A stretch of DNA of 32,000 nt from positions 1,470,001 through 1,502,000 of the forward strand of contig NC_005070.1 of NCBI RefSeq assembly GCF_000195975.1. Direction: 5' to 3'. This DNA is from Parasynechococcus marenigrum WH 8102. GTDB taxonomy: Bacteria; Cyanobacteriota; Cyanobacteriia; PCC-6307; Cyanobiaceae. A program made the position numbers and the translations under genes. The notes beneath the pieces are model-generated. The model had not been told where the DNA came from. It saw nothing but the letters and a program-made list of their open reading frames with translations, and made no database searches. Of this stretch, positions 18,857 through 31,906 are shown piece after piece (positions within the stretch are counted from its first letter, which is position 1; each line of letters opens with the position of its first letter).

Positions 18857-19282
18857 ATGGAACGGCTGGCCCTCAGGGAGCAAGCCGCACAACCTTTACT
18901 CAACAGCGGCTGGACGCTGCTTTACTCCGGCCTGACCCCATTGAGGGCCAGCGTCACCCTGCTGGATCCGAGTGAAAGTCTTCAGATCAGTCTCCAGATC
19001 CCCATCGGAGAGGTTGATAAAGACTGGGATCTGTGGCTTGAAGCCTGCAACCGACAGCTCAGCGCCCCGCTCAGGCAGTGGCTGGAATCCCAAGGCATTG
19101 AACAGACCACCCTCAGCCGGCTGACAGGAGCTGAGCAAGGTGGTGAGGAGACTCTCAAGATCAGCAACATGCTCCAGGTGGCACGTTGGTTGCAAAGCCC
19201 GATCGAAGCCATCGAAGCCCTGGCGGAGTCCAACGGATCCCAGCTGGTGCTCCACCTGGCAGGACTGGGAACCAACAGCTGA
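18857..19282 (+). CDS. Hypothetical protein
   Basis: The track ORF starts at 18803 (TTG) inside the terminator hairpin. The first ATG (MERLALREQ...) is at 18857. No recognisable domain. Confidence 0.45.
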   Translation: MERLALREQAAQPLLNSGWTLLYSGLTPLRASVTLLDPSESLQISLQIPIGEVDKDWDLWLEACNRQLSAPLRQWLESQGIEQTTLSRLTGAEQGGEETLKISNMLQVARWLQSPIEAIEALAESNGSQLVLHLAGLGTNS

Positions 19283-19334
19283 GGGGGGCTGACCCCTGCC
19301 GACATAGGTTGTTGGACATCAGGGGGATGATCCG

Positions 19335-19568
19335 ATGACCCAGGCCAAGCTCACCATCGGTGAACTGGAAGCGGGATACCCGCTCTATTGCAAAGCCCTG
19401 AGACGACTGCTGCAACAAGGCAAGACAGCTAAGGACATCGAACGCACCGTCTGCTGGGGACACCTGGAAACCCTCAATCGTTGCTTACCGACGCGCTACA
19501 AGGCACCGTCCTATCTGCTGACCCTGATCCGCAGGGATCTGGAAAAAATCAAGGAAGGGAAGGTCTAA
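19335..19568 (+). CDS. Hypothetical 77-aa protein
   Basis: ATG ORF with core-like composition; no recognisable motif. Confidence 0.4.
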   Translation: MTQAKLTIGELEAGYPLYCKALRRLLQQGKTAKDIERTVCWGHLETLNRCLPTRYKAPSYLLTLIRRDLEKIKEGKV

Positions 19569-19903
19569 GCAGCCTCAGACCATTCACAGCCACCTCTCTC
19601 TGCATTGAGAGTGATTGCCTTTTCGTTCAACACACTGTTCGAAAAAGCGATTCAGTTAGAGCGAACGATTTTTCGGAAGCCAAAAAGCCGCTGCAGGGCA
19701 ACATCAGTTCTGATGATGTTGTTCATTTTTCCGCCTCCGTGATCGGGCTTGAGTGGAGCGATTCCGTGGCCCTCAGCCAGCAACAGACCATGAGAATGTC
19801 GTCCGCAGGGCAGAGTCAGGGATATCCACGCACCAGCAAGTGAGACGATTCACGAATGCGTGGCCGCTCGATATAAAGTCATACCAACGCGAAACGGCAC
19901 ACC

Positions 19904-20167
19904 ATGGAGTTCTCGATTGTCATCCTGAGCAAACACATTGATGATTATCCCAAGATCACATGGACAGACTGGAAAGATAAGAACAGAAAAAAAATGAAAA
20001 GCGAAGGCGATCATTGGTCAATGGCAACCTTATCTGGTGCCGATATCTGGGATTGCCTAGACAGCAACAAGATTGATCGTCTGCACCTAGTGCAGTGGAA
20101 GCGCTCTTGTGACGACCTGCACAGCGTGAGCCTTCCGGATCACCCGCATCCCGCCGAGAAAAACTGA
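19904..20167 (+). CDS. Hypothetical 87-aa protein (lower-GC islet)
   Basis: ATG ORF in an AT-richer stretch; no recognisable motif. Confidence 0.35.
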   Translation: MEFSIVILSKHIDDYPKITWTDWKDKNRKKMKSEGDHWSMATLSGADIWDCLDSNKIDRLHLVQWKRSCDDLHSVSLPDHPHPAEKN

Positions 20168-20219
20168 TTGACACGACACAGCCATCAGATGAGAGCCTAT
20201 TGAAGCGCCAAAGGATCAA

Positions 20220-20483
20220 TCAACCATCCATCAACCAATCATCATCGATGGCGTTATCATTATCTTCGATTTCAACGCCGGTGGGTTGCACACGTTCCGA
20301 CTGTTGAGGAGAAAGAGGTGGTGGGGGTGGAGGCATCGCAGGCCTGGAAAATTGATTGATCGGAATTCTTTGGCTTCCCCAACCTGCCTGATAGGGGATG
20401 ACGAGCAATCGGATTGGCTCACCAGCAAAAGCTGTCGTAGGACTGATCAAGAGCGGGAGCACCATCCAAGTCGAGGCTCGCAT
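20220..20483 (-). CDS. Hypothetical small secreted proline-rich protein
   Basis: The internal ATG at 20483 gives MRASTWMVLPLLISPTTAFA (signal-peptide-like), then a PPPPPP tract and an acidic tail. The longer 20220..20705 version would overlap the fibrillin gene. Confidence 0.3.
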   Translation of the reverse strand: MRASTWMVLPLLISPTTAFAGEPIRLLVIPYQAGWGSQRIPINQFSRPAMPPPPPPLSPQQSERVQPTGVEIEDNDNAIDDDWLMDG

Positions 20484-20494
20484 CCAACACCTCA

Positions 20495-21040
20495 ATGACA
20501 AACGAACAGGACGCGTTGGTTTCACTATTGCAGAGAAACCCCAATGACAAAAGCATCGCTGGGCGCATTGCGTCGCTTGAAGAGGCACAACCCGCTGACT
20601 TGAATCGTGATGCACCCCTTCTAGACGGTGTGTGGGATTTGCGTTGGAGCAGTTCAAGCCAGCCCTGGCTTCGTCAAGCACCTTGGCTGGAGAATCTTCA
20701 GGCACTGGACCTCAAGCAGAACAAAGGTTGCAACCTGCTGCGCTTGCGTGGACCGCTCGGAACACTTGGAGCCATCAGCGTCCAAGCAACTCTGAACGTG
20801 ATTAACTCAAAGCGGGTTGAGGTGAAATTCTGCAAGGGAGGCTGGCTTGGACCAACGCTGCCTGGTCTTGGTCCAATCAAGTTGTTGCGTAACGTTCAAC
20901 AAAGCTTTCCTGCCTGGCTTGACATCACAGTATTGAATCAACAACTACGCATCTATCGAGGCAACGCGGGAACAACATTTGCGTTGCTGAAGCTCGATAC
21001 GGTCGAGATCAAGGATCTGATTGATCAGGGCAATGATTAG
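20495..21040 (+). CDS. PAP/fibrillin-family protein
   Basis: 181 aa with LLDGVWDLRWSS, RVEVKF, WLDITVLNQQLRIYRGNAGTTFALLK, the typical fibrillin (PF04755-like) pattern. Confidence 0.75.
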   Translation: MTNEQDALVSLLQRNPNDKSIAGRIASLEEAQPADLNRDAPLLDGVWDLRWSSSSQPWLRQAPWLENLQALDLKQNKGCNLLRLRGPLGTLGAISVQATLNVINSKRVEVKFCKGGWLGPTLPGLGPIKLLRNVQQSFPAWLDITVLNQQLRIYRGNAGTTFALLKLDTVEIKDLIDQGND

Positions 21041-21058
21041 CCTGCTCCCGCATTCGAA

Positions 21059-21847
21059 TCAATTCCTTCCCACGATAACTGGAGGAGTCGATGCGCCAGC
21101 GAAGGATGGAACAACTTGTGTTTGCCCATCCCATTTATCAAGAAACAGCTTGTACAGAACGCTGTTATTGAGGGATCGACTCAATGTTTCAAATTTAATG
21201 GCTTCTTGTTCGGCAATCTGAACTTCTGTTTTTGCTCGCAAGAGCTGCTGTTGCGCAATTTGCTTCTGTTCAATGGCAGCCCTGTACTCTTCTGCGATCT
21301 GCAGCCCAGTGATATCAAGACCTCTTACAACGACGTAATCAAATTTACTGAGCTCCTGCGAGACGCTTTCCTGCACGAGCGAAGAGATGTTGTTCCAATC
21401 TGTCGCGATCGTATCGAGCTCATACTTTGAGAAGACTGACTTCAGTGATTTCAGCAGCGATGGCTGGATCACCCTTGCGTAGATCGCAGAGTCGTCAGTA
21501 GCGATTGTGCTGTATATCCTGGGAGCCTCAGATGGCTTGACGGCATATTTAACTGTTGCCGTTGCCTCGATCACCTGGAGATCCTTCGTCAGCGTCGAGA
21601 ATTTTTCTGGAATGACCTGCGTTCTCACGCTGAAGGAATGCGTGCTCTGCAGGAATGGAATCTTGAGGTTCAGCCCTGGCTGCCTTGGCTCATCCGAAAC
21701 CTTGCCAAGCGTCGTCACAACGCCCACCTCACCCGCAGGGACGACAAACAAGCTGGACAGAACCGCGATCCCCCCAAAGAATATTGACGACACAGCAATA
21801 ACTAGTTTCGAAACGTTCTCAGAGTTTTGATAAGAGCGCATCACCAC
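21059..21847 (-). CDS. SPFH/band-7 (prohibitin-like) membrane protein
   Basis: 262 aa with an N-terminal TM, then VVPAGEVGVVTTLGKV..., a coiled-coil EEYRAAIEQKQIAQQQLLRAKTEVQIAEQEA, and KWDG. An ATG alternative start lies at 21844. Confidence 0.8.
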   Translation of the reverse strand: MVMRSYQNSENVSKLVIAVSSIFFGGIAVLSSLFVVPAGEVGVVTTLGKVSDEPRQPGLNLKIPFLQSTHSFSVRTQVIPEKFSTLTKDLQVIEATATVKYAVKPSEAPRIYSTIATDDSAIYARVIQPSLLKSLKSVFSKYELDTIATDWNNISSLVQESVSQELSKFDYVVVRGLDITGLQIAEEYRAAIEQKQIAQQQLLRAKTEVQIAEQEAIKFETLSRSLNNSVLYKLFLDKWDGQTQVVPSFAGASTPPVIVGRN

Positions 21848-22043
21848 AAAAACATAACAATGTCATGCTAACAATCACATAGTCGCAGACAACGAAATTA
21901 AACAATAAAGTAACATCTTCAATCCACCCATCTATCTAACAAGGGGAAATGACAGCATCCAGCCGTTACCACCATCTCCCAGAGCACCAGTCACAGGAAT
22001 CGATGAGCAGCGCAGAGGCAGGCTGGCTAAGCGCAGCAGCAAT

Positions 22044-23219: not shown

Positions 23220-23260
23220 TGGAGCCACGGAGACTCGAACTCGTGACCCCCTGCATGCCA
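23220..23260 (-). pseudogene. tRNA 3'-half remnant (variable loop/T-arm/acceptor-like); putative island att remnant
   Basis: The minus strand reads TGGCATGCAGGGGGTCACGAGTTCGAGTCTCCGTGGCTCCA. This is a GGGTC variable-loop-like stretch, a GTTCGAGTC T-loop and an acceptor-like 3' end. The T-stem has a 1-nt bulge, and no matching 5' acceptor, D-arm or anticodon arm lies upstream. Confidence 0.55.
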
Positions 23261-23418
23261 TAGAGGAGTTCAAGGGCCTCAAACACACTGGTAGCACTGG
23301 ACTGACACTTAATTAATGCAAATGTGTGCGCAGAATGGGGAGCAGATTTGCCATGCCAGGCAGATCCCCTGCAGGAACTAAGGAGCAGGGCTTTTATTCA
23401 TAATGCAAACCAGAAAAT

Positions 23419-23438: not shown

Positions 23439-24238
23439 AACGCGCCACATAAGCCACCAGTCCACCGTAAAACCGGCTGTCTTCATAATACTCAAATAGC
23501 TAAGCTGTATGTATTCCAAATACGCGTTTTAGTGCCCAAACTTCAGCTTCCTATTCAGGCTGACCTGATCATCAATCGTCTGGGTATGGAAGCCAGTATT
23601 GAACGTCAGCGTGCAGTCTTTGAAATTGATGACAATGCACCACATGTGCCGTCGTACGACCCACTAGCAAATCCCCAAAGCCTACGTCTAGCAACCCATA
23701 TCAGCTGAATTTCAATCAATCGATGAGCAGATCAAGGGTCGTACCCAATCTGCAATTTTAATCTCAGACTCGTCAGCTTGAAGCCCGAATCGCCAAGATC
23801 GATGGCACTAAGCATCTCCTACCAACACGTAGATACAGTCAACCGGTAGACATGGCAAAAATCAGGCCAAACCTGACACTTACATCGCTTATTACACAAG
23901 ATTCCGCAGAGCTAGCTCACTTTTGGGGTATTGATCCTGGTATCCGTCACCGTTCGACCAGGAGAAAGAGAACAGAGCCATGGCAGCGCAGTCGTCAGCG
24001 ATGCGCCAGAGCGCCTTCGCGACAGTAACGAGAGAGCTACAAAGGTCCGCGAGAGCAGCTCACTTATGCGACACAACCCAAGTATTCGTCATCGCATGGG
24101 AGGGAGAGAAGGAAGCCAGAGCCAATGCAGTGGAATGGGTCTGGATCATCAAGGTCGTCATGGGGGGAACTAACAAGCCACACATTGCTTTTCAGGGAAA
24201 TAGAGAGATATTTATAGGAGTTCGTCACCCTGTACGCC

Positions 24239-24934
24239 ATGTTCATCACCGTTTTTGGCCAAAAAGGTGGTGTCGCCAAAACTTGTAGCAGTATTCACAT
24301 TGCAGCATGCTGGAGCTATCAGCAAAAACGGGTAGTCCTGGTTGACTCCGACTGCAACCGATCAGCAACTGCATATGGCGCCAGAGAACTCTTGCCCTTT
24401 CCGGTCGTGCCAATTGAAGCGGCAGCTAAAGCCACTCGATTAGCCGAAATTGTCATAACCGACGGACAGGCAAGCAGCAACGAAGATGAAATTAAAAATT
24501 TGGTCGAGGGAGCCGATTTTATTCTGCTTCCCACCACTACGCAAAGCAGATCAATCGAATTGACAGTTGAGATGTCACAGATGTTGAGAAAATATAGGGT
24601 TCCCTTTGCTGCACTACTTGTAAAAGTGGATGCACGCAAAGAAGCTGCAGCTGAACAAGCCATGGAATTACTTCAGGCATTCGACATCAAAGTTTTAGAC
24701 TCACAAATCCCACTTCTAAGCGCTTTTGAACAAGCAGAAACGGAAGGAGTCACTGTTGATCAAGCGGTTGACAAGCGTGGTCGTGCAAATCCACGCAGGA
24801 TGACCGGATGGTCGGCATACTGCGCTGCCTGCAAGGAAATTGAAGATCTATTCGAAGAGCACCAAAAACTGAGGAAGAATCAATCGCCAATCGGATGGGA
24901 CTTCACACGGATGGAACATCGTGTAGCCGGGTAA
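24239..24934 (+). CDS. parA: ParA/MinD-family partition ATPase (small, type Ib-like)
   Basis: 231 aa with the deviant Walker A GQKGGVAKT, VVLVDSD, and IVITDGQ...ADFILLPTTT. Confidence 0.8.
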   Translation: MFITVFGQKGGVAKTCSSIHIAACWSYQQKRVVLVDSDCNRSATAYGARELLPFPVVPIEAAAKATRLAEIVITDGQASSNEDEIKNLVEGADFILLPTTTQSRSIELTVEMSQMLRKYRVPFAALLVKVDARKEAAAEQAMELLQAFDIKVLDSQIPLLSAFEQAETEGVTVDQAVDKRGRANPRRMTGWSAYCAACKEIEDLFEEHQKLRKNQSPIGWDFTRMEHRVAG

Positions 24935-25102
24935 ATACTGATGTCTGGCAACTGGCCCATAACTGTGGTTCTATCAAGAGAACTAACATATCAAGCTTCA
25001 GACAACACTGAAACCGTGGCCGAGGGGCAATGGAACCTAGGCTTGCCTGTGCCTGACTGCAAGGCTCAACCAAAAAAAAATCATATCTAGTACCACCATC
25101 TG

Positions 25103-25603
25103 TCAGGATCCAATCTTTTCGGAGCCTCCTATAAGCGAATACTTGGTTGAAAGTTCATACATTTTCTGGTGAATAGATGTATCGCGATCCTCAACGGAAA
25201 ACCAATCAGGTTGGACTGGCTCCATCAAGATTCTGGGACCCAAATCAATTGCTTTATATTCCAAAACAATGAATATGCCATCACGGTCTTTGAACCCAAG
25301 CTCTGCTAAGAGCATGCCGCTGTTGGTGGGCAGACTAATCATGGCTTCATTTTTGTACATATTAATCTCTGTTGCTATGACGGTTGTAATGACATCGCTA
25401 TCTGAACTACTTGGGATGTCCCTGATCCTAAGTATAAGTTGAGAATCTGCCTCTTGCTTCACAAGTGTCAAGGCTTCAGTCTTAAGCAACCATTTACAAC
25501 TTATAAAGCCTGGATGGAGACTACATGAAAACCAGGAGCGATTGGCCAAAACCTCACCCTGCTCGTTTTTCAAAAAGCCAAGTAATCGAAGCAGACGTCT
25601 CAT
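25103..25603 (-). CDS. Hypothetical protein, DUF4912-like
   Basis: 166 aa and AT-rich. The pattern W-x-hydrophobic...LILRIRDIP...AMISLP...LLAELGFKDRDGIFIVL resembles cyanobacterial DUF4912 from memory (not verified). Confidence 0.5.
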   Translation of the reverse strand: MRRLLRLLGFLKNEQGEVLANRSWFSCSLHPGFISCKWLLKTEALTLVKQEADSQLILRIRDIPSSSDSDVITTVIATEINMYKNEAMISLPTNSGMLLAELGFKDRDGIFIVLEYKAIDLGPRILMEPVQPDWFSVEDRDTSIHQKMYELSTKYSLIGGSEKIGS

Positions 25604-25723
25604 GGGCCTAAAAATTTATTATCAACAGACCAATTGCAATCGCCTCGAAAAAATTACAATACTTGATCATCGTATAGCTTGTAACAAAATGCCTATATTT
25701 TGGATTGAGTAGAAAGTGCTTGA

Positions 25724-26383
25724 TTACACATCGCCAAGATTGACAATATCGTAAGAACTACTAGTTGCCTCTAGCAATCTAGAGTATCGGCTTCCCCTGT
25801 AACCATAATTATAATCAACATAGCTGATACTTGAGGTGTTCGTTAGCGCAGAAGATTCTGAAACCTCGACAGATTCACTCTCCGTGGAGACCTCCTCTGA
25901 CGTAGAGTTGTTTTTTAAGTTGTTTTGGTTGGCTTCTGGGTTTATAATAAGATCTGAAGGTAAGTCCCCGCCCTTGTTGATCACGGATTTTAATAATAAG
26001 AAGTCATTTGATTCAACTTTGGAGACATTCACCAGACGCGCTATCACCCCACCTTTCTTTCCATACCCTTTACCAGCTCCATTGGAATTCCAGAAGAGAA
26101 AACCCTTCTTTTGATCAAAAATCAAATCAACGTCATGTTTCGAGTGGACCTTAACAGCTTCTTTCCTGTTTTTAGCAAAATGTATGGATGTATCAGTGTC
26201 AAAGCGTCTAGAGATAAGCTCTATTTTATTCGCAGCTCTCGAAAAGGAAGATAGATCATATTTTAAATATTTGGCTTTCTTTTTTTGATGATTGAGAAAA
26301 ATCTGAAGATTGCCATCATCACTGAGAGAGGGTTTTCTCATGAGTCTGAGGTGACTGGATTTATAATGACAAAGGATTCTCAA
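25724..26383 (-). CDS. Hypothetical protein with internal tail-module homologous to the esterase C-terminus
   Basis: 219 aa (alternative ATG at 26341). DVDLIFDQKKGFLFWNSNGAGKGYGKKGGVIARL aligns with the esterase DFDFLYDQKKGGLYFNENGADKGFGEGGIIAIL. The C-terminal part is Ser/Glu/Thr-rich and low-complexity. Confidence 0.6.
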   Translation of the reverse strand: MRILCHYKSSHLRLMRKPSLSDDGNLQIFLNHQKKKAKYLKYDLSSFSRAANKIELISRRFDTDTSIHFAKNRKEAVKVHSKHDVDLIFDQKKGFLFWNSNGAGKGYGKKGGVIARLVNVSKVESNDFLLLKSVINKGGDLPSDLIINPEANQNNLKNNSTSEEVSTESESVEVSESSALTNTSSISYVDYNYGYRGSRYSRLLEATSSSYDIVNLGDV

Positions 26384-26424
26384 AAGCGTGGATCGAGTGC
26401 GCTATTCGTTCCAGGACGTACCCG

Positions 26425-26616
26425 ATGCCGAACATCCTTGATCACGTCTCACTAGCACCAGTCGTTGAAGTAGACGCTTGGCCACGCTCAGCATAACGCA
26501 AGGAATGGTTCGCCATCACAAGGGGCATCATTCAAGACACCATCGCTGACATGAACCTCGATCCTGCTGCTGAAGCAGACGTGATCGAAGCCTTCACTGG
26601 TGCAGGGCTGTTGTGA
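26425..26616 (+). pseudogene. Pseudogene of the 63-aa gene family (in-frame TAA at 26494-26496)
   Basis: It has the same 192-nt length as, and is colinear with, the intact copy 30562..30753. Codon 24 is TAA where the intact copy has ACA. Confidence 0.75.
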
Positions 26617-26635
26617 ATGATCAGGAGCTGACTAA

Positions 26636-26737
26636 CTAATGGTCGTGCAGCAGCAGCTCAAGCTCTCCATAGAAGAGAGCCATAGTGCCAACGATGGCCA
26701 CGCACAGGGTGGTAGTGAGAAGCAGTTCGTTGAGCAT
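26636..26737 (-). CDS. 33-aa single-TM peptide (copy 1)
   Basis: MLNELLLTTTLCVAIVGTMALFYGELELLLHDH, preceded by AAGGAGGaaaagATG. A second copy lies at 31233..31334 with 5 synonymous and 3 non-synonymous differences. Alternative frames are not conserved between the copies. Confidence 0.65.
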   Translation of the reverse strand: MLNELLLTTTLCVAIVGTMALFYGELELLLHDH

Positions 26738-26897
26738 CTTTTCCTCCTTGTCGCTGTCCTTGGTCTAAGACAAATAGTCAGCACTTGTAGCTATTATTAC
26801 AAGTCTGAATGGAGTGAAAACCGGCCAGCAAGACCGATAGGCTCAAATCGATCGCAGCGCAGTCAACCTCAGCGATTTGCACCCCTACAAGCGCCGG
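26738..26897. repeat. Conserved non-coding leader, copy A
   Basis: Aligns with 31335..31495 and more loosely with 30955..31165. Contains the core GCAGCGCAGTCAACCTCAGCGATTT (26854-26878) bracketed by AAATCG/CGATTT and CCGGC/GCCGG inverted repeats. Confidence 0.7.
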
Positions 26898-27423
26898 GTA
26901 ACATCAGCCACCTGACCAGACAAATGCTTCAAGCCGCACCAAAATCAACTGCGATCCTCCTCCAATCTTTTACGTGATCTGAATAAACCGTCACGCCAAA
27001 CAGCAAGGGCACTCAGAGGCTTGAGTAGTTTCGTCAGCACGATTGTGGATACAGGAATCATTGATCGTCGCTCCACAACCTGGACGCGGCAAAACGCCAA
27101 GCGACGATTGAACTTGCAGAGGCACCGAAAGCAAGAAATGCTATCAGCATCTGGGAGGTATCCATGGGAAATTTACAAGAGAGGCTCTCCTAGCTACTCA
27201 CTAACGACTGGCGCTGTTGTTACCAATTTGGAGCAGCAACCACTGGTCCCGAAATATCCGTGTCATCTCAGCAATGCAGCTGACCCAATAAATCGCCGCT
27301 GATCAACATGGCAAGGGCCGCTAAGGCAAGCAGCTGTATCAGCAAGACGTCGCCACAATGGGATGACGAACTGCTCGAAGCTGTAGTATCAATGCTCAAA
27401 GCGCATGGTCTGCTGTAAGCGAA

Positions 27424-28620
27424 ATGAAGCCAGAAAACTTCACTTCAGAAAAGATTCCCGCTTCTCTCGATGAAGTGTCTTTGAATTATTTCGCTCACGA
27501 TGGTAATAAAAGAGAGTATTTAACATACATTCCATCAGGCTACTCGCACACAATTGAAGCTCCTGTCATTCTTAATTTTCATGGATTCGGGGGCACTGCC
27601 TCTGGGCAACTTGCTTTATCGGACTGGAGAGACCTAGCAGAAAAGCATGGCATTATTTTAATCTATCCTCAAGGGCTTGAACTGCAGAAAGGCGGAAGTC
27701 ATTGGAATCCCGATCCTGTGTCAAGTGACAGCAAAAGCATAAGTGACGACTTGGGATTTGTAAGACGATTGCTAAAGAGAATCTCAAAGAATTATTCAAT
27801 CGACAAATCACGTGTGTATGCAACTGGCTATTCCAACGGAGCAGGGATGGCATACGGGCTGGCACATCATATGCCCGACCTAATAGCAGGAATTGCTCCC
27901 GTATCAGGGTTGATGAATGACGAATATCTTTCAACTACTTCTGGCGGTTCACCTGTTGGTCTTATAAGTTTTAATGGCGAAGAAGATTGGGTACGCCCAG
28001 TCAATGGCATTAATGGATACTTGGCGTCTGTTGCTGACATATCAAGCCATTGGGCTAGGGAAAATAGTTCAACGCAAAGTATAGCCGAGCAATTCGCACA
28101 AGCCAATGGTGATCGCATTGAACGCACCTCCTACTCTCGAGATGATGGATTGACTACCGTTGAACAATACTTAGTAGACAGGGGTGGCCATGAGTGGTTT
28201 GATCTTGATATCGAAGGCAAAGATCTAAATCAACTTGCGTGGCAGTTTCTTTCGAGACTAAGGAAACAAGATGAAGGCATCTTAACGGCGCGCAAGAAAT
28301 CTCTTGAACTCCGATTGCCAGATGTTTTTACGCGAGGGTTGGCAGACAAGGTTATCAATTTCAATGCATTAACAGATGCAATAGATATTGATATCAATAG
28401 CTTCGGCATTAACAGATCAGCAACGTTCGAAACTGGCAAAAACAAGAAGGAAGTCAAGAAAGTTCTTGCCAAGCAAGACTTCGACTTCCTCTACGACCAG
28501 AAGAAGGGTGGGCTTTACTTCAACGAAAATGGGGCAGACAAAGGCTTTGGGGAAGGCGGCATCATTGCCATCCTTAAAGGCGCACCTGATCTAACGTCTA
28601 GCAATCTAGAGTTTATCTAA
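27424..28620 (+). CDS. LpqC/PHB-depolymerase-family (alpha/beta hydrolase) esterase with C-terminal tail module
   Basis: 398 aa with YLTYIPSGY...PVILNFHGFGG, DDLGFVRRLL and the GYSNGAGM nucleophile elbow. The N-terminus is hydrophilic (no signal peptide). The last ~85 aa are homologous to an internal segment of 25724..26383. Confidence 0.8.
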   Translation: MKPENFTSEKIPASLDEVSLNYFAHDGNKREYLTYIPSGYSHTIEAPVILNFHGFGGTASGQLALSDWRDLAEKHGIILIYPQGLELQKGGSHWNPDPVSSDSKSISDDLGFVRRLLKRISKNYSIDKSRVYATGYSNGAGMAYGLAHHMPDLIAGIAPVSGLMNDEYLSTTSGGSPVGLISFNGEEDWVRPVNGINGYLASVADISSHWARENSSTQSIAEQFAQANGDRIERTSYSRDDGLTTVEQYLVDRGGHEWFDLDIEGKDLNQLAWQFLSRLRKQDEGILTARKKSLELRLPDVFTRGLADKVINFNALTDAIDIDINSFGINRSATFETGKNKKEVKKVLAKQDFDFLYDQKKGGLYFNENGADKGFGEGGIIAILKGAPDLTSSNLEFI

Positions 28621-28650
28621 GGCATCTCCCTAGTTGATCTTCTCCGATAA

Positions 28651-29037
28651 GTGCCTATGGCAATCACCACACGAGCGCAACGCCAGCAACGACGTTACGA
28701 GGCTCTACAGCTGATCAGCTGTGGTGTTCCGCCAACTGATGCTGCTTCACAGCTGACTGTTAAGTGGGGTTGCAGTCGGCGAACGAGTCTGCGTGACATA
28801 GAAAGCGTGCATAGTGAACTAGCAAACGCCTTGGATTCGGTTGAGCTTCAGCAGATGATGGGTTGGCTGGCAACGCAGTATCAACGCCTGGCGGCCAAGG
28901 CTGAACGCGATGGCCAGTACGCCTCAGCTGTTGGTGCGTTGAACGCATTGCGAGCAATGGTTGTGCAACCGCAACTGGATGCGCAGTTTGCTGCGCACTT
29001 CCGTGGTCGCTTTACGCACCAAACGCACCGCAGGTAA
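28651..29037 (+). CDS. 128-aa HTH-like protein, paralog 1 (WGCSRR motif)
   Basis: Paralogous to 31520..31906; both share ...G(V)....(A)..L...WGCSRR...R....H and an Ala/Gly-rich helix (G.(Y/F)A.A(V/I)GA). The probable start is the ATG at 28657. Confidence 0.65.
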   Translation: MPMAITTRAQRQQRRYEALQLISCGVPPTDAASQLTVKWGCSRRTSLRDIESVHSELANALDSVELQQMMGWLATQYQRLAAKAERDGQYASAVGALNALRAMVVQPQLDAQFAAHFRGRFTHQTHRR

Positions 29038-29076
29038 CAATCGGTTTAAAATTATGTAGTAAGTCATTGGGATGAG

Positions 29077-29295
29077 GTGCAGATGATTAAATCCTTCCTG
29101 ACTATTGTTGGCGCGATAATTACTGTTGCATGCCCAGTAGCTAAGGCTGCTGAAGAAGATGACCAACAAACGCAAGAACCAAAAACATATGAAAGATGCG
29201 TGCTGGTCGCTTCTGAAAGGAATACAAAGTGGACTCAGTACAGAGTCGATGTCAATAACTGCAGAGCTAAATACGGCATGCCAGGTGAGTACTAA
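29077..29295 (+). CDS. Small secreted or lipoprotein-like protein
   Basis: The ATG at 29083 is preceded by GAGG. MIKSFLTIVGAIITVACPVAKA is signal-peptide-like, followed by an acidic stretch and 2 Cys in the mature part. Confidence 0.45.
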   Translation: MQMIKSFLTIVGAIITVACPVAKAAEEDDQQTQEPKTYERCVLVASERNTKWTQYRVDVNNCRAKYGMPGEY

Positions 29296-29536
29296 TACAT
29301 GTCTTGATAGTTCAAACTCTGGGACAACGGTCTAGCTTGAGCATCAACCCAATGACTGGGAGGTACTTCTTATGCTCGCTCGACCTCACCTTGTTCTGGG
29401 TTGGCTCCATTGCCAACCAGAGGACAGCAGATGACTTCTCGATCGGCAGCTAACCCATCGCGATCATTCGCTGGAGGCTGATCCAAGCTTCAGCGGTACC
29501 CAACCGAGCTTCGTTGAAGAGACCTGGGTCAACTGG

Positions 29537-29719
29537 TTGCCGAAGGCTGTCGCTCAACCCTTCTACAGAGACCAGCTCACCGCCCATGTTGCAGAGGTGG
29601 AACGCCAAATCTCCAACCTCAGCCGCGAGATTGAACGGCAGTCCGGCGGCCTGCTCGATCAGAGAGATTCAGCTGTGGATCTCAGGCAACGTCTCAAACA
29701 TATGCTGGAGGGCTCGTAA
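29537..29719 (+). CDS. Hypothetical ~60-aa coiled-coil protein (start uncertain)
   Basis: TTG start in the track; the frame is open from 29435 with no ATG. The 3' end is duplicated as a fragment at 30479..30521 with mostly synonymous changes, which supports this frame. Confidence 0.35.
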   Translation: MPKAVAQPFYRDQLTAHVAEVERQISNLSREIERQSGGLLDQRDSAVDLRQRLKHMLEGS

Positions 29720-29826
29720 ATATAGAAAGTTTTCATTAAAAGGTAAGAAGCGCTACAAATATTAGAATATCTACTATTTCGCGGCATCGCTCAATAGTAG
29801 ATTTTAGAGTCAGTAGCAAGCAAGTT

Positions 29827-30423
29827 GTGCCTGAGGAGATCTTCTACGCAAAAGGGGCTGTAATTCAAAGCCATTACGCGATCTCAAATGAAGCACCAGA
29901 CTCCTGGTCTTATTGCATCAAAGCAATAGCATCTGAGCGAGGTAACAATTTTGATGAAGTAATCGAATACAGAGATAGGCAATTACTGCGTCAGATGAGT
30001 CTCGTCAATAACAATGCAAGAGACCCACTGAATGTTGTGCAGACAAGGTTTGATCGGGTTGGATACAATTCATTTGCAATTGACTTTTATCACTCAAATA
30101 AAACACCTGAATTGGTATTTATCTCACCTATCTGTAAGCCTGAAAAATCAGATTTGTCATACGGCTCAATCGCGGATATCGCGTATACATTCAATTGTAA
30201 TTGCGATGTGAATTCTAAATGTTCCAAATTCATTCAAAGCACAACTCTTTTAGGAATAAATTTGATCAAGAAGGGTCGCTTGGAGGGGATAGAGTCGACA
30301 AGGGAGAAAATTATGGAGGAGTTCTCTACATACAATAGAGGTAGAGAAGTTGACATTAGCGAGGTGGCTCTAAAAAATAATAATTCTCAAAGTATATTAG
30401 AAGATTTGTCTCAGCTAAATTAA
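29827..30423 (+). CDS. Hypothetical 198-aa protein in a very AT-rich cassette
   Basis: GTG start with Asn/Ile/Lys-rich composition and no recognisable motif. This is the most AT-rich stretch of the window. Confidence 0.45.
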   Translation: MPEEIFYAKGAVIQSHYAISNEAPDSWSYCIKAIASERGNNFDEVIEYRDRQLLRQMSLVNNNARDPLNVVQTRFDRVGYNSFAIDFYHSNKTPELVFISPICKPEKSDLSYGSIADIAYTFNCNCDVNSKCSKFIQSTTLLGINLIKKGRLEGIESTREKIMEEFSTYNRGREVDISEVALKNNNSQSILEDLSQLN

Positions 30424-30478
30424 TAAAAATATTGATAAATTCAAATTTTTGTGCATTTGATCAATCTTATACATTTTT

Positions 30479-30521
30479 GGGATCTCAGACAACGTCTTAA
30501 GCACCTGCTGGAGACCTCATA
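30479..30521 (+). pseudogene. Orphan 3' fragment of a paralog of the 60-aa gene
   Basis: 35/43 nt are identical to 29677..29719. It translates to DLRQRLKHLLETS* versus DLRQRLKHMLEGS*. Confidence 0.6.
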
Positions 30522-30561
30522 ACCCTGCTCAACCATCCGTTTCCAGACGCACCAGATACCG

Positions 30562-30753
30562 ATGCCGAACATTCTTGATCACGTCTCACAAGCACCAGTT
30601 CTTGAAATAGACGATTTGCCACGCTCGGCAACACGCAAGGAATGGTTCGCCATCACCAGGCGCATCATTCAAGACACCATCGCTGACATGAAACTCGATC
30701 CCGCTGCGGAAACAGAAGTAATTGAAGCCTTCACAGGTGCAGGTCTGCTGTGA
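30562..30753 (+). CDS. 63-aa acidic protein (intact family member)
   Basis: MPNILDHVSQAPVLEIDDLPRSATRKEWFAITRRIIQDTIADMKLDPAAETEVIEAFTGAGLL. It has a pseudogene copy at 26425 and a tail remnant at 31171. Confidence 0.55.
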   Translation: MPNILDHVSQAPVLEIDDLPRSATRKEWFAITRRIIQDTIADMKLDPAAETEVIEAFTGAGLL

Positions 30754-30768
30754 GGGCTGTCATGCCCC

Positions 30769-30954
30769 TTACTGCATTAGGTCATCAGTTGGCCTTGCAG
30801 GGACAGTCGCCACTGCATCACCTGGCGTTGCTACTTGAGGATTGATTTGGTTCCAGCCATTGAACATGTGAATGCCTGCAATGAACGCCAGAGCAATCAT
30901 CAAGTAACCGATTCGGTTTTCCTCTTGGAAGGCTTGTCTTTCTTTTTTTGTCAT
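30769..30954 (-). CDS. 61-aa single-TM protein
   Basis: MTKKERQAFQEENRIGYLMIALAFIAGIHMFNGW..., preceded by AAGGAGGtcacaggATG. It occupies the same position (convergent, 15 nt from the 63-aa gene stop) as the 33-aa peptide genes in the other modules. Confidence 0.55.
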   Translation of the reverse strand: MTKKERQAFQEENRIGYLMIALAFIAGIHMFNGWNQINPQVATPGDAVATVPARPTDDLMQ

Positions 30955-31165
30955 CCTGTGACCTCCTTGCTACGCGGTCTTCCCCATGGCTTTGGTCTAC
31001 GCCTTTGGAGCAGACACTTGTGTTGGTTGTCACATTTCTGCATGGAGAGAAAAACAGCCATAAAGATGCGCCGGCAGGCAAGCGGACGGACGCTAAATCC
31101 AGTGCAGCGCAGTCAATCTCAGCGATTTAACCATCAAACGGACGGGCCCAACACGGCCTTGCAGC
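30955..31165. repeat. Conserved non-coding leader, copy B (divergent)
   Basis: Shares the TTGGTCTA, CACTTGT and ATGGAG(A/T)(G/A)AAAA(A)C blocks and the core GCAGCGCAGTCAATCTCAGCGATTT (31104-31128) with copies A and C. Confidence 0.6.
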
Positions 31166-31170
31166 GGCCC

Positions 31171-31213
31171 AGCAGAAGCGATCGAAGCCTTCACTGGTGC
31201 AGGGCTGTTGTGA
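31171..31213 (+). pseudogene. 3' remnant of a 63-aa family gene
   Basis: 31181..31218 is 38/38 identical to 26584..26621 (IEAFTGAGLL* plus 5 nt). The homologous coding sequence upstream is missing. Confidence 0.7.
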
Positions 31214-31232
31214 ATGATTGGAAGCTGACCAA

Positions 31233-31334
31233 CTAGTGATCTTGTAGCAGAAGCTGAAGCTCTCCATAGAAGAGAGCCATAGCGCCAACGATGGCCACGC
31301 ACAGGGTGGTGGTGAGAAGCAGTTCGTTGAGCAT
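31233..31334 (-). CDS. 33-aa single-TM peptide (copy 2)
   Basis: MLNELLLTTTLCVAIVGAMALFYGELQLLLQDH, preceded by AAGGATGaaaagATG. See copy 1. Confidence 0.65.
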   Translation of the reverse strand: MLNELLLTTTLCVAIVGAMALFYGELQLLLQDH

Positions 31335-31495
31335 CTTTTCATCCTTATCTTTGTCCTTGGTCTAAGACAAACCGTCAGCACTTGTAGCTCTTGTCACGAG
31401 CCTGAATGGAGTAAAAACCGGCCACTACAACCGATAGGCTCAGATCCACTGCATTGCAGTCGTTCTCAGCGACTTGTCCCCCTCAAAAGCGCCGG
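31335..31495. repeat. Conserved non-coding leader, copy C
   Basis: Colinear with 26738..26897. The core variant is GCATTGCAGTCGTTCTCAGCGACTT (31451-31475), with the CCGGC(31418)/GCCGG(31491) bracket conserved. Confidence 0.7.
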
Positions 31496-31519
31496 TTCCA
31501 ACCTTCCAAGTAGCAAGCC

Positions 31520-31906
31520 ATGACCCGCAAGCGCGTAACCGCTAGCGAGAAGAAACAACGCCATGCATGGGCGATACGTCAGATCGACAAAGGCGTCGGC
31601 TTCTCCGAGCTTGCGACCCTTGTGGCCGAAACATGGGGGTGTTCACGTCGACAAGCCCGTCGTGTCGTAGCTGATGCCCACAAAGAGTGGATGGAGATTG
31701 CCTTCGGAGCTGAGGAGATCGATCAGCGTGACCTGCTGATGCAAAGCGTCGCCCGCCTGGAGCGCACTGCGCGTAAGGCGGAAGCAAGCGGCAACTTCGC
31801 CTGTGCGATCGGCGCGGTTCAGCTGATGAATCGAATGATGGCCTCAGGTGCTGATCAGACGGGATGCCGCGGTCATCGCCGCAAAGGGCACTACTACCGG
31901 CACTGA
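31520..31906 (+). CDS. 128-aa HTH-like protein, paralog 2 (WGCSRR motif)
   Basis: MTRKRVTASEKKQRHAWAIRQIDKGVGFSELATLVAETWGCSRRQARRVV...; paralog of 28651..29037. It lies immediately downstream of leader copy C. Confidence 0.65.
   Translation: MTRKRVTASEKKQRHAWAIRQIDKGVGFSELATLVAETWGCSRRQARRVVADAHKEWMEIAFGAEEIDQRDLLMQSVARLERTARKAEASGNFACAIGAVQLMNRMMASGADQTGCRGHRRKGHYYRH

Follow-up and report, generated by a model that had tools for sequence, protein, structure and literature searches.

Parasynechococcus marenigrum WH 8102 carries the same three-part gene junction three times between positions 26,425 and 31,906 of the stretch of DNA analysed here (32,000 nucleotides (nt), contig NC_005070.1, 1,470,001 to 1,502,000; hereafter the window, whose coordinates are used unless another locus is named). 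Each copy joins the 3' end of a gene for a 63-amino-acid (aa) protein to a convergent gene for a small single-transmembrane (TM) peptide and to a conserved non-coding leader. A sequence-only reading, made from the letters and open reading frames (ORFs) of the window, took the copies for junctions between small elements or cassettes in a tandem, recombining array. What, then, are these junctions, and to what kind of DNA do they belong? Here we report that the junction is an interior cargo slot of a larger integrative-element backbone. The window most probably holds the proximal part of a tRNA-Ala(GGC) island in which several related elements, similar to the tycheposons of Prochlorococcus, have lost their mobility genes.

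Three copies of a composite junction

A repeat search of the window, BLAST and a three-way alignment confirmed the three-part junction in three copies, M1, M2 and M3. M1 and M3 (26574-26873 and 31171-31470) are 87% identical over 300 nt in the repeat search and 86.5% identical over 325 nt by BLAST (E about 1e-98), close to the 80-90% over about 330 nt estimated by eye, and the 38-nt identical stretch reported between them is present. M1 and M2 (26422-26616 and 30559-30753) are 89% identical over 195 nt. The stop codons of the 63-aa gene and the peptide gene are separated by 19, 15 and 19 nt in M1, M2 and M3, as the claimed 15-19 nt had it, and the peptide genes have the expected Shine-Dalgarno sequences (AAGGAGG, AAGGAGG and AAGGATG, respectively). 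M2 does carry a different peptide, of 61 aa rather than 33 aa. The three states described for the 63-aa gene were also recovered: a nonsense pseudogene in M1, with TAA at codon 24 (26494-26496) and an intact counterpart in the relatives L014-L018; an intact gene in M2; and a tail in M3, which measures 43 nt and not 40. The gene fragment noticed between modules is a copy of the 3' end of a 60-aa gene (81% identity). Directly before an esterase gene lies a fourth member of the 63-aa family (D' in Table 1), truncated at its N-terminus and absent from the sequence-only reading.

The leader of 160-210 nt is conserved as claimed, but it is not a single unit. Its proximal ~105-140 nt accompanies the peptide genes, and its distal ~33 nt is a separable motif, named U here, which the repeat search returned as a third repeat family of 34 nt with copies at 26845, 31095 and 31442.

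The junction is the D-E cargo slot of an integrative element

Genome contigs were scanned with an alignment of the 128-aa helix-turn-helix (HTH) protein family encoded downstream of the leader; the peptide pattern used for this was too narrow, and the scan returned only 4 loci. It located intact elements in L020 (a freshwater metagenome-assembled genome, MAG), L022 and L023. All three have the gene order A-B-C-D-(cargo)-E-helicase/primase-excisionase-like-tyrosine integrase and lie at tRNA genes or tRNA remnants. By sequence similarity, the 63-aa gene corresponds to D and the 128-aa HTH gene to E. A, a remnant of B, and C were also identified in the window by tblastx (Table 1), and the window A was matched in L022, L023 and L020 by tblastn. 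Mapping the window onto the backbone by tblastx shows three junction modules that are each a D-E cargo slot, and a fourth instance in the esterase unit. Each module is thus the 3' end of D, the contents of the D-E slot and the ~33-nt motif U just before E. Rather than marking a boundary between small elements, it lies in the interior of a backbone of roughly 6-8 kb.

The contents of this slot vary among the relatives. In L020 the stop codon of D overlaps the start of E and leaves the slot empty; the slot holds a 241-aa gene in L023 and a minus-strand pilin-like gene in L022. In A18-40 (L085), in which D was not identified, a metallothionein gene stands just upstream of E and downstream of two U copies. 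The integrases of the relatives L020, L022, L023 and L085 match phrog_1 at 1e-9 and 3e-12, with BLASTP at 7e-10, and that of A18-40, located beside tRNA-Arg, is of the same family as those of the intact elements. The helicases of L022 and L023 match AAA_25 at 2e-13, and L020 has a 958-aa ORF that by eye resembles a primase/helicase.

Iteron-like short direct repeats (CAATGCGCACACG twice and ACAAGCGGTAC twice) lie between E and the helicase gene in L023 (10373-10562) and L022 (10373-10560), and are candidate origin or arm-type sites. A role of U as the origin of the element next to the helicase was weakened by these loci, which have their own repeats at that place and no U.

The array lies in a tRNA-Ala island

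Three metagenome scaffolds match the window at 100% identity, and Synechococcus WH8103 matches it at 98.8%. A 43-nt partial tRNA-Ala(GGC) at 23220-23262, beside the PfkB gene at the edge of the low-GC island, is an att-type remnant marking the island edge. ARAGORN found no full tRNA in the window. From here the GC content drops from ~62% in the 22-23 kb bin, equal to the core at about 62%, to ~42-51% in the 23 to 31 kb bins. It is already lowered (0.48-0.54) at 19000-22000, over PAP_fibrillin and Band_7 genes, ahead of both the PfkB gene, which is GC-rich, and the tRNA remnant. In L014 (GCA_902612475.1) the array is bordered by a full tRNA-Ala next to LexA and, on the other side, by a partial copy next to PfkB, which makes the island an integration hotspot at a tRNA. 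The related arrays L022 and L089 each have two partial tRNA remnants; those of L022 are tRNA-Ala remnants, one on each side and about 8 kb apart, and a full tRNA-Arg(TCT) stands on one side of L023. The earlier statement that partial-tRNA repeats are missing is accordingly right for the interior of the array and wrong for the island as a whole.

Several observations weigh against a series of tycheposon-like elements. No integrase, excisionase or replication gene, and no tRNA remnant between the modules, was found in the window or the next 10 kb. The relatives' integrases fall under Pfam's own threshold (24.4 vs 27.1 bits). A Foldseek search of the E model against the PDB gave nothing below E=1. 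Finally, 23452-31472 of the window and 2887-10910 of L014 have opposite orientations relative to the tRNA-Ala/PfkB flanks, which could be a whole-array inversion or an assembly artefact of L014, a contig from a MAG or single-amplified genome (SAG). As no internal tRNA remnant is present here, serial integration is read from the relatives and is not directly seen. The same absences of an integrase, a replication gene and an internal tRNA remnant indicate that the array has decayed.

The junction sequences at this difference in orientation between L014 and the window have TTAATGCAAA and TGTGCGC(C) motifs in common. Repeats of TTGGCGCACA/TGTGCGCC lie near both tRNA copies of L014 (2700-2800 and 12885-12910), and are candidate origin or arm-type sites.

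Units differ among wild variants

Comparison with wild variants of the array revealed unit-by-unit differences. In L081, C-D-61-aa peptide gene-leader B-U is joined straight to a right flank of the L014 type, with neither the 198-aa gene nor M3. L077 has no 198-aa gene either, and L071 and L079 have a single module. In L014, M3 ends inside U, and two U copies spaced by 70 nt, a methyltransferase gene and a third E subtype are added. In L089, which has two partial tRNA-Ala remnants, the M2 unit is inverted next to ParA. The breakpoints fall in U or at gene tails. These variants support ongoing rearrangement, and the differences among L014, L071/L079, L077, L081 and L089 bear out the proposal of related units with exchangeable cargo. 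Unit-wise presence and absence across strains, which the sequence-only reading had set as its own test, was thus found. The word recombining, in the sense of present-day exchange, was not borne out: with no surviving recombinase in the window or within 10 kb beyond it, cassette exchange today by a locally encoded enzyme is not established.

In L081 and L077 the C gene runs directly into D through the sequence that in the window is the separate fragment at 30480-30522. This fragment is the true 3' end of a C gene that once belonged to the M2 unit, and the 198-aa gene, which had no family match, is a variable insert.

Plain segmental duplication in a static island, or a generic dispersed repeat unlinked to mobile elements, would fit the lack of mobility genes in the window, and the 38-nt stretch identical between M1 and M3 is compatible with gene conversion. 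However, the backbone is syntenic with integrase-bearing elements at tRNAs in other genomes, M2 has a different peptide, the copies are 11-14% diverged with differing neighbours, and the U core pattern has no copy in the ~23 kb of core genome within the window. The synteny with intact elements and the L081 and L077 variants largely refute this explanation, and we regard it as highly improbable.

From the synteny, the tRNA remnants and the variants we infer, as the most economical reading, the following order of events and mode of recombination. Related elements would have integrated serially at tRNA-Ala, and the module would be repeated because several backbones lie in series. Later deletions, extending from the downstream side of E to the C or D gene of the next unit, would have removed A and B together with the helicase, integrase and att remnant, and their illegitimate joints would survive as the 43-nt tails of C and D. 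Rearrangements between repeated parts, especially at U, would subsequently have added, removed or inverted units.

Motif U in the island

U is quasi-palindromic and ends each leader about 45 nt upstream of E; the sequence on its 3' side reads ..CCC.TCAAAAGCGCCGG... It also occurs where there is no peptide gene: after a 603-aa cargo gene beyond the window, in tandem in L014, and twice between the excisionase-like and metallothionein genes of A18-40. The slots of L022 and L023 and the esterase slot hold cargo and have no U. No relevant paper was found for the U core in the literature searched.

Three rearrangement joints (30480, ~31150-31171 and 31472) lie at GATC-containing sequences that resemble the right arm of U. 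These are GGATCTCAG, with which the C tail begins, GCGATCG at the D tail and TTCTCAGCGA where the synteny with L014 breaks. The resemblance may be due to chance, or to a preferred cutting or crossover motif.

The placement of U raises the alternative of a site-specific cassette array, in which U or the GATC-containing tail sequences would be the recombination site and a recombinase would shuffle the cargo in the manner of an integron. Every M2/M3 cassette in the window ends in U, tandem U copies occur in L014 and A18-40, and cargo is found on either side of U. The L014 and window sequences part exactly after CTCAGCGA, the L081 joint that lacks M3 is in U, and both tails begin like U's right arm. 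In several U-bearing phage contigs, large serine recombinases are encoded 0.7-4.5 kb from U. Yet no recombinase is encoded in or near the array, and cargo also sits in slots without U. Ordinary homologous recombination equally predicts breaks at repeated sequence, and the tails are truncated genes, which are typical of illegitimate joints and not of precise site-specific products. We therefore consider a site-specific cassette array improbable. The system resembles integrons in its serial, small, promoter-proximal cassettes, each followed by an imperfect-palindromic motif, and in their presence or absence by strain. Unlike integrons, it has no IntI-type integrase or attI, its cassettes carry truncated tails of the flanking gene, and U by inspection is unlike attC, without the R''-L''/L'-R' architecture. 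It is not an integron.

Motif U in cyanophage-like contigs

Pattern scans detected the U core, (C)AGATCC-N-TTGCAGCGCAGT-(G/C)GATCT(C/G)AGCGA, in about 30 contigs of IMG/VR and in several from metagenomes; one contig among them has a GC content of only 33% (the U-bearing loci are L024, L027, L031-L034, L039-L070 and L071-L083). The carriers resemble Synechococcus phages: a TerL of the gpA type is 47% identical to that of S-CBS3, and a PrimPol/VapE protein is 52% identical to that of S-LBS1. Other carriers have a T7-type TerL. In 16 IMG/VR loci U follows the predicted end of the primase/helicase ORF at a distance of about 50-90 nt; in 2 loci it is within ~40 nt of a T7-type TerL gene and in 2 more it is 0.4-2 kb away. 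Its orientation is reverse to the primase/helicase or TerL gene in all these placed loci. In L031 and L032, U stands between a 206-aa gene, p206, and terS-terL, and L027 has at least 5 copies in 450 bp. The phage copies are flanked by phage-specific short repeats. S-LBS1 has a degenerate U copy in the spacer between primase and terS. In its record (L070, MG271909) that spacer contains a tandem duplication with a 255-nt period (34258-34641), and the record breaks off within the second U-like copy (..CTGCTGCAG). A blastn search of U against cultured phages gave chance hits only, and S-CBS3 has no U.

The left arm of U is invariant and the right arm variable, as would be expected of a DNA site bound by a protein more than of an RNA stem. 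U may serve as the core of a packaging site or concatemer junction, as an origin core, in the control of an operon or in recombination. A further explanation of the array is that U is a cyanophage signal (a packaging site, replication-origin core or late-operon control site) copied by the island elements. The copy would allow these elements, or their peptide genes, to respond to an infecting siphophage or exploit it, as a satellite resembling a phage-inducible chromosomal island does. Its occurrence in Synechococcus phage-like contigs, its stereotyped position and reverse orientation, its place next to terS-terL, the degenerate S-LBS1 copy and the flanking repeats all point in this direction. 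So does the enrichment of tycheposons in virus particles reported in a preprint (10.1101/2020.12.28.424599). Against it, PhageTerm analysis of S-LBS1 predicted headful packaging from a site elsewhere than the U-like copy (PMC6157547), and the cultured phages, S-CBS3 included, offer no clear match. Neither the island nor the related elements examined showed a terS or capsid gene, no E homologue was detected in IMG/VR by the scan used, and multi-copy U arrays argue against a cleavage site. We regard a phage signal as unlikely. In its full form, held equally tentatively, this proposal would make U a functional DNA signal common to picocyanobacterial siphophages and T7-like podophages and captured by tycheposon-like elements in front of E. 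The units and peptide genes (110-145 nt from U) might then be switched on, replicated or packaged on infection, with U as a preferred crossover for cargo exchange.

Phage-inducible chromosomal islands (PICIs) that carry the cos site of a helper phage include SaPIbov5 and the Escherichia coli cos-PICIs with Rpp. Like them, the elements here are small and integrative, and at the far end from the integrase a short phage-type motif adjoins a small HTH gene. Unlike in cos-PICIs, no homologue of terS, of a capsid gene or of Rpp came to light, E matches only a PHROG without annotation, and U is only a candidate packaging site.

Peptide genes and leaders

The 61-aa peptide is represented in 33 protein clusters, 32 of them at 75-98% identity and nearly all of exactly 61 aa, and is a real conserved gene. 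In L090 (8000-11500) an 85%-identical gene lies in a small islet between AI-2E transporter genes and secDF, with no U and no tRNA, and the 61-aa peptide gene thus travels outside the tRNA-Ala island too. For the 33-aa gene, 4 of 69 nucleotide columns in the first 23 codons (26669-26737 and 31266-31334, minus strand) vary across 17 variants (6%), compared to 25-49% in the flanks. Since these nucleotides are nearly invariant, the constraint extends to synonymous sites, which suggests constraint beyond the protein sequence at the start of the gene. The exact 33-aa and 61-aa sequences had no entry in the protein collection, and neither D nor the two peptides matched a credible family in Pfam, PHROGs or NCBIfam.

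Promoter and terminator scans of the leaders returned only weak, non-conserved sites, such as a promoter-like site on the minus strand of leader A (26820-26793) and a terminator-like hairpin with a T-run on the minus strand of leader C (31435-31417). Searches against Rfam were negative both at gathering score for the whole window and at E<=5 for 26400-31600. For the leaders on the minus strand, RNAalifold gave an unfavourable covariation term (+1.26) and no covariation support. A similarity near 23973-23993 was considered as a fourth leader and dropped, being inside the B pseudogene with the rest of the leader missing.

Type I toxin-antitoxin systems, such as hok/sok, ldr, tisB and zor-orz, encode hydrophobic peptides of tens of residues behind long conserved upstream regions and occur as multiple diverged copies in mobile DNA, as the peptide genes do here. 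An addiction cassette of this kind, whose copies stabilise island segments, would be in keeping with the small hydrophobic peptides and their strong Shine-Dalgarno sequences, with the convergence on D across 15-19 nt, which makes antisense read-through possible, and with the nearby ParA gene. The conservation of the 33-aa gene at synonymous sites and the constant length of the 61-aa family are also in its favour. Unlike the known systems, the peptides have no sequence homology to these toxins, their toxicity is only putative, and no antitoxin or antisense RNA, promoter or conserved RNA structure was detected. The absence of Rfam and protein-family matches counts against it as well, and the copies of D, C and E and the esterase slot would be left unexplained. 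As an account of the array, we give a toxin-antitoxin cassette little credence. Within the preferred reading of a decayed series of tycheposon-like elements, this reading and the PICI-like one are possible sub-hypotheses.

Further features of the island

The features are collected in Table 1. The E family gave 1224 hits, none with a Pfam domain, and 601 hits at E<=0.001 in a representative library of 50% identity clusters. Against solved structures, E had by sequence a weak HTH match to TfuB1 (E=0.009), and its AlphaFold2 model (predicted local distance difference test score, pLDDT, 73) has five helices with an N-terminal HTH. The idea that E is a small-terminase or Rpp-like protein was unsupported because of the Foldseek result given above. 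A second exact WH8102 entry among the window proteins is CAE08073.1. Beyond the window (window coordinate = L001 position + 21519) lie a fifth D (L001 11585-11782), the 603-aa RTX-like cargo gene and a fourth U (L001 14228), in that order, and a fragment of E; a further E copy is found in the related scaffold L003 (19329-19745).

The ParA gene belongs either to the cargo or to a partition module. It is followed immediately by a small ORF of 49 aa in the window (24941-25090), compared to 76 aa in L014 (4376-4606), L016 and L017, which might be a partner gene of the ParG/ParB type that has been disrupted. A common tail of ~60 aa (..DFxYDQKKGxLYFxxNGxxKGxGxGGxxAxLKG..) ends four cargo proteins that are unrelated in other respects (window 25724-26383, minus strand, and 27424-28620, plus strand; L001 12014-13825 and 16667-18307), and looks like a secretion or RTX-type C-terminal domain.

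Table 1. Island features in the window, followed by the backbone genes of the intact elements.
Feature	Position or size	Strand	Evidence or remark
Partial tRNA-Ala(GGC), anticodon loop to 3' end	23220..23262	-	exact 31-nt match, 0 expected by chance; aligned with full tRNA-Ala of L014
A (58-aa ORF 23532-23708) and B remnant (pseudogene)	23512..23970	+	tblastx to L022 A and B: 66% over 74 aa, 71% over 69 aa
ParA-type ATPase gene in first unit	24239..24934	+	Pfam CbiA E=7e-13, AAA_31 E=1e-9
D copy 1 (M1), nonsense pseudogene	26425..26616	+	88% identical to M2 copy; intact in L014-L018
33-aa single-TM peptide gene, copy 1	26636..26737	-	ORF, AAGGAGG Shine-Dalgarno
Leader A, proximal part, upstream of peptide gene	26738..26844		blocks kept in M2 and M3
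U copy 1, AAATCGATCGCAGCGCAGTCAACCTCAGCGATTT	26845..26878	+	three-copy repeat family; core also in cyanophage-like contigs
Truncated D', 36-aa ORF, C-terminus ..EAVVSMLKAHGLL	27308..27418	+	70% over 37 aa to L023 D; left border of esterase slot
Esterase with RTX-like C-terminal tail	27424..28620	+	Pfam Esterase_PHB E=2.7e-6; exactly between D' and E (28651)
E subtype 2, 128-aa HTH protein	28651..29037	+	80-83% identical to E of intact L022 and L023
C, coiled-coil backbone gene; 60-aa ORF 29537-29719 is its 3' part	29369..29719	+	tblastx: L023 C 54% and 41%; L022 C 30% over 99 aa
198-aa low-GC gene, between C and duplicated C tail	29827..30423	+	no counterpart in L081 and L077
C-gene tail, 43 nt	30480..30522	+	81% to 29677-29719; contiguous with C gene in L081 and L077
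D copy 2 (M2), intact, 63 aa	30562..30753	+	exact protein annotated in WH8103 and Parasynechococcus marenigrum; family alignment
61-aa single-TM peptide gene	30769..30954	-	protein cluster search
Leader B, proximal part	30955..31094		three-way alignment
U copy 2	31095..31128	+	repeat family; in L081 joined directly to L014-type right flank, M3 absent
D tail (M3), 43 nt, remnant of third-unit D	31171..31213	+	repeat search, three-way alignment
33-aa peptide gene, copy 2	31233..31334	-	ORF; variant comparison
Leader C, proximal part	31335..31441		alignment, variant comparison
U copy 3	31442..31475	+	L014/window synteny breaks at 31472, right after CTCAGCGA
E subtype 1, 128-aa HTH protein, right slot border	31520..31906	+	ORF; phrog_34910 E=2e-6; exact protein is WH8102 CAE08076.1
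Backbone A	58-67 aa	plus	L020, L022, L023
Backbone B	132-166 aa	plus	L020, L022, L023
Backbone C	117-125 aa	plus	L020, L022, L023
Backbone D	51-65 aa	plus	L020, L022, L023
Cargo slot	variable size	either strand	L020, L022, L023
Backbone E	115-126 aa	plus	L020, L022, L023
Helicase/primase	large	minus	L020, L022, L023
Excisionase-like gene	83-91 aa	minus	by eye only; L023 copy without family match
Tyrosine integrase	410-484 aa	minus	L020, L022, L023

Relation to tycheposons and significance

Tycheposons of Prochlorococcus, as described in the preprint of Hackl et al. (bioRxiv 10.1101/2020.12.28.424599), integrate at tRNA genes and leave partial tRNA repeats, and have a divergent tyrosine integrase, an excisionase, a small replication module and variable cargo. 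According to the same preprint, repeated integration pushes older, decaying elements deeper into the island. Tycheposon-like insertions at tRNA-Phe are described for Synechococcus by Grebert et al. 2022 (PMC8995045). The elements studied here are similar in their tRNA site with partial tRNA repeats, in their variable cargo on a conserved backbone and, in the intact relatives, in the module of integrase, excisionase-like and replication genes. They differ in that the tRNAs are tRNA-Ala(GGC) and tRNA-Arg(TCT), tRNA-Ala being absent from the preprint's main text. The sections consulted in these papers also make no mention of the A-B-C-D/E backbone, of a cargo slot with a set place between two small conserved genes, or of motif U. 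In contrast to tycheposons, the copies in the window are without any hallmark mobility gene: the integrase, primase/helicase and excisionase-like gene that the intact relatives all have are missing, and the copies, lacking integrase and replication genes, are therefore remnants and not functional members. By gene content and tRNA setting, the system appears to work like tycheposons. The structure type, stacked and decaying elements targeted to a tRNA gene, is already known; the fixed D/E cargo slot and motif U are new.

WH8102 serves as a model for marine Synechococcus, and most of its strain-specific genes are located in its islands. The array provides an anatomy of how such an island is put together, from a conserved A-B-C-D/E backbone with a single defined cargo slot that has been stacked and worn down at a tRNA-Ala gene. 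Elements that have lost their integrases can be traced with the D and E families as markers; the E family has >1200 unannotated homologues. Since U is common to the island units and to uncultured cyanophages, and lies at breakpoints, the traffic between phages, satellites and islands that has long been suspected in picocyanobacteria becomes directly testable. If U is indeed a phage signal, it would point to a satellite or abortive-infection link between islands and phages.

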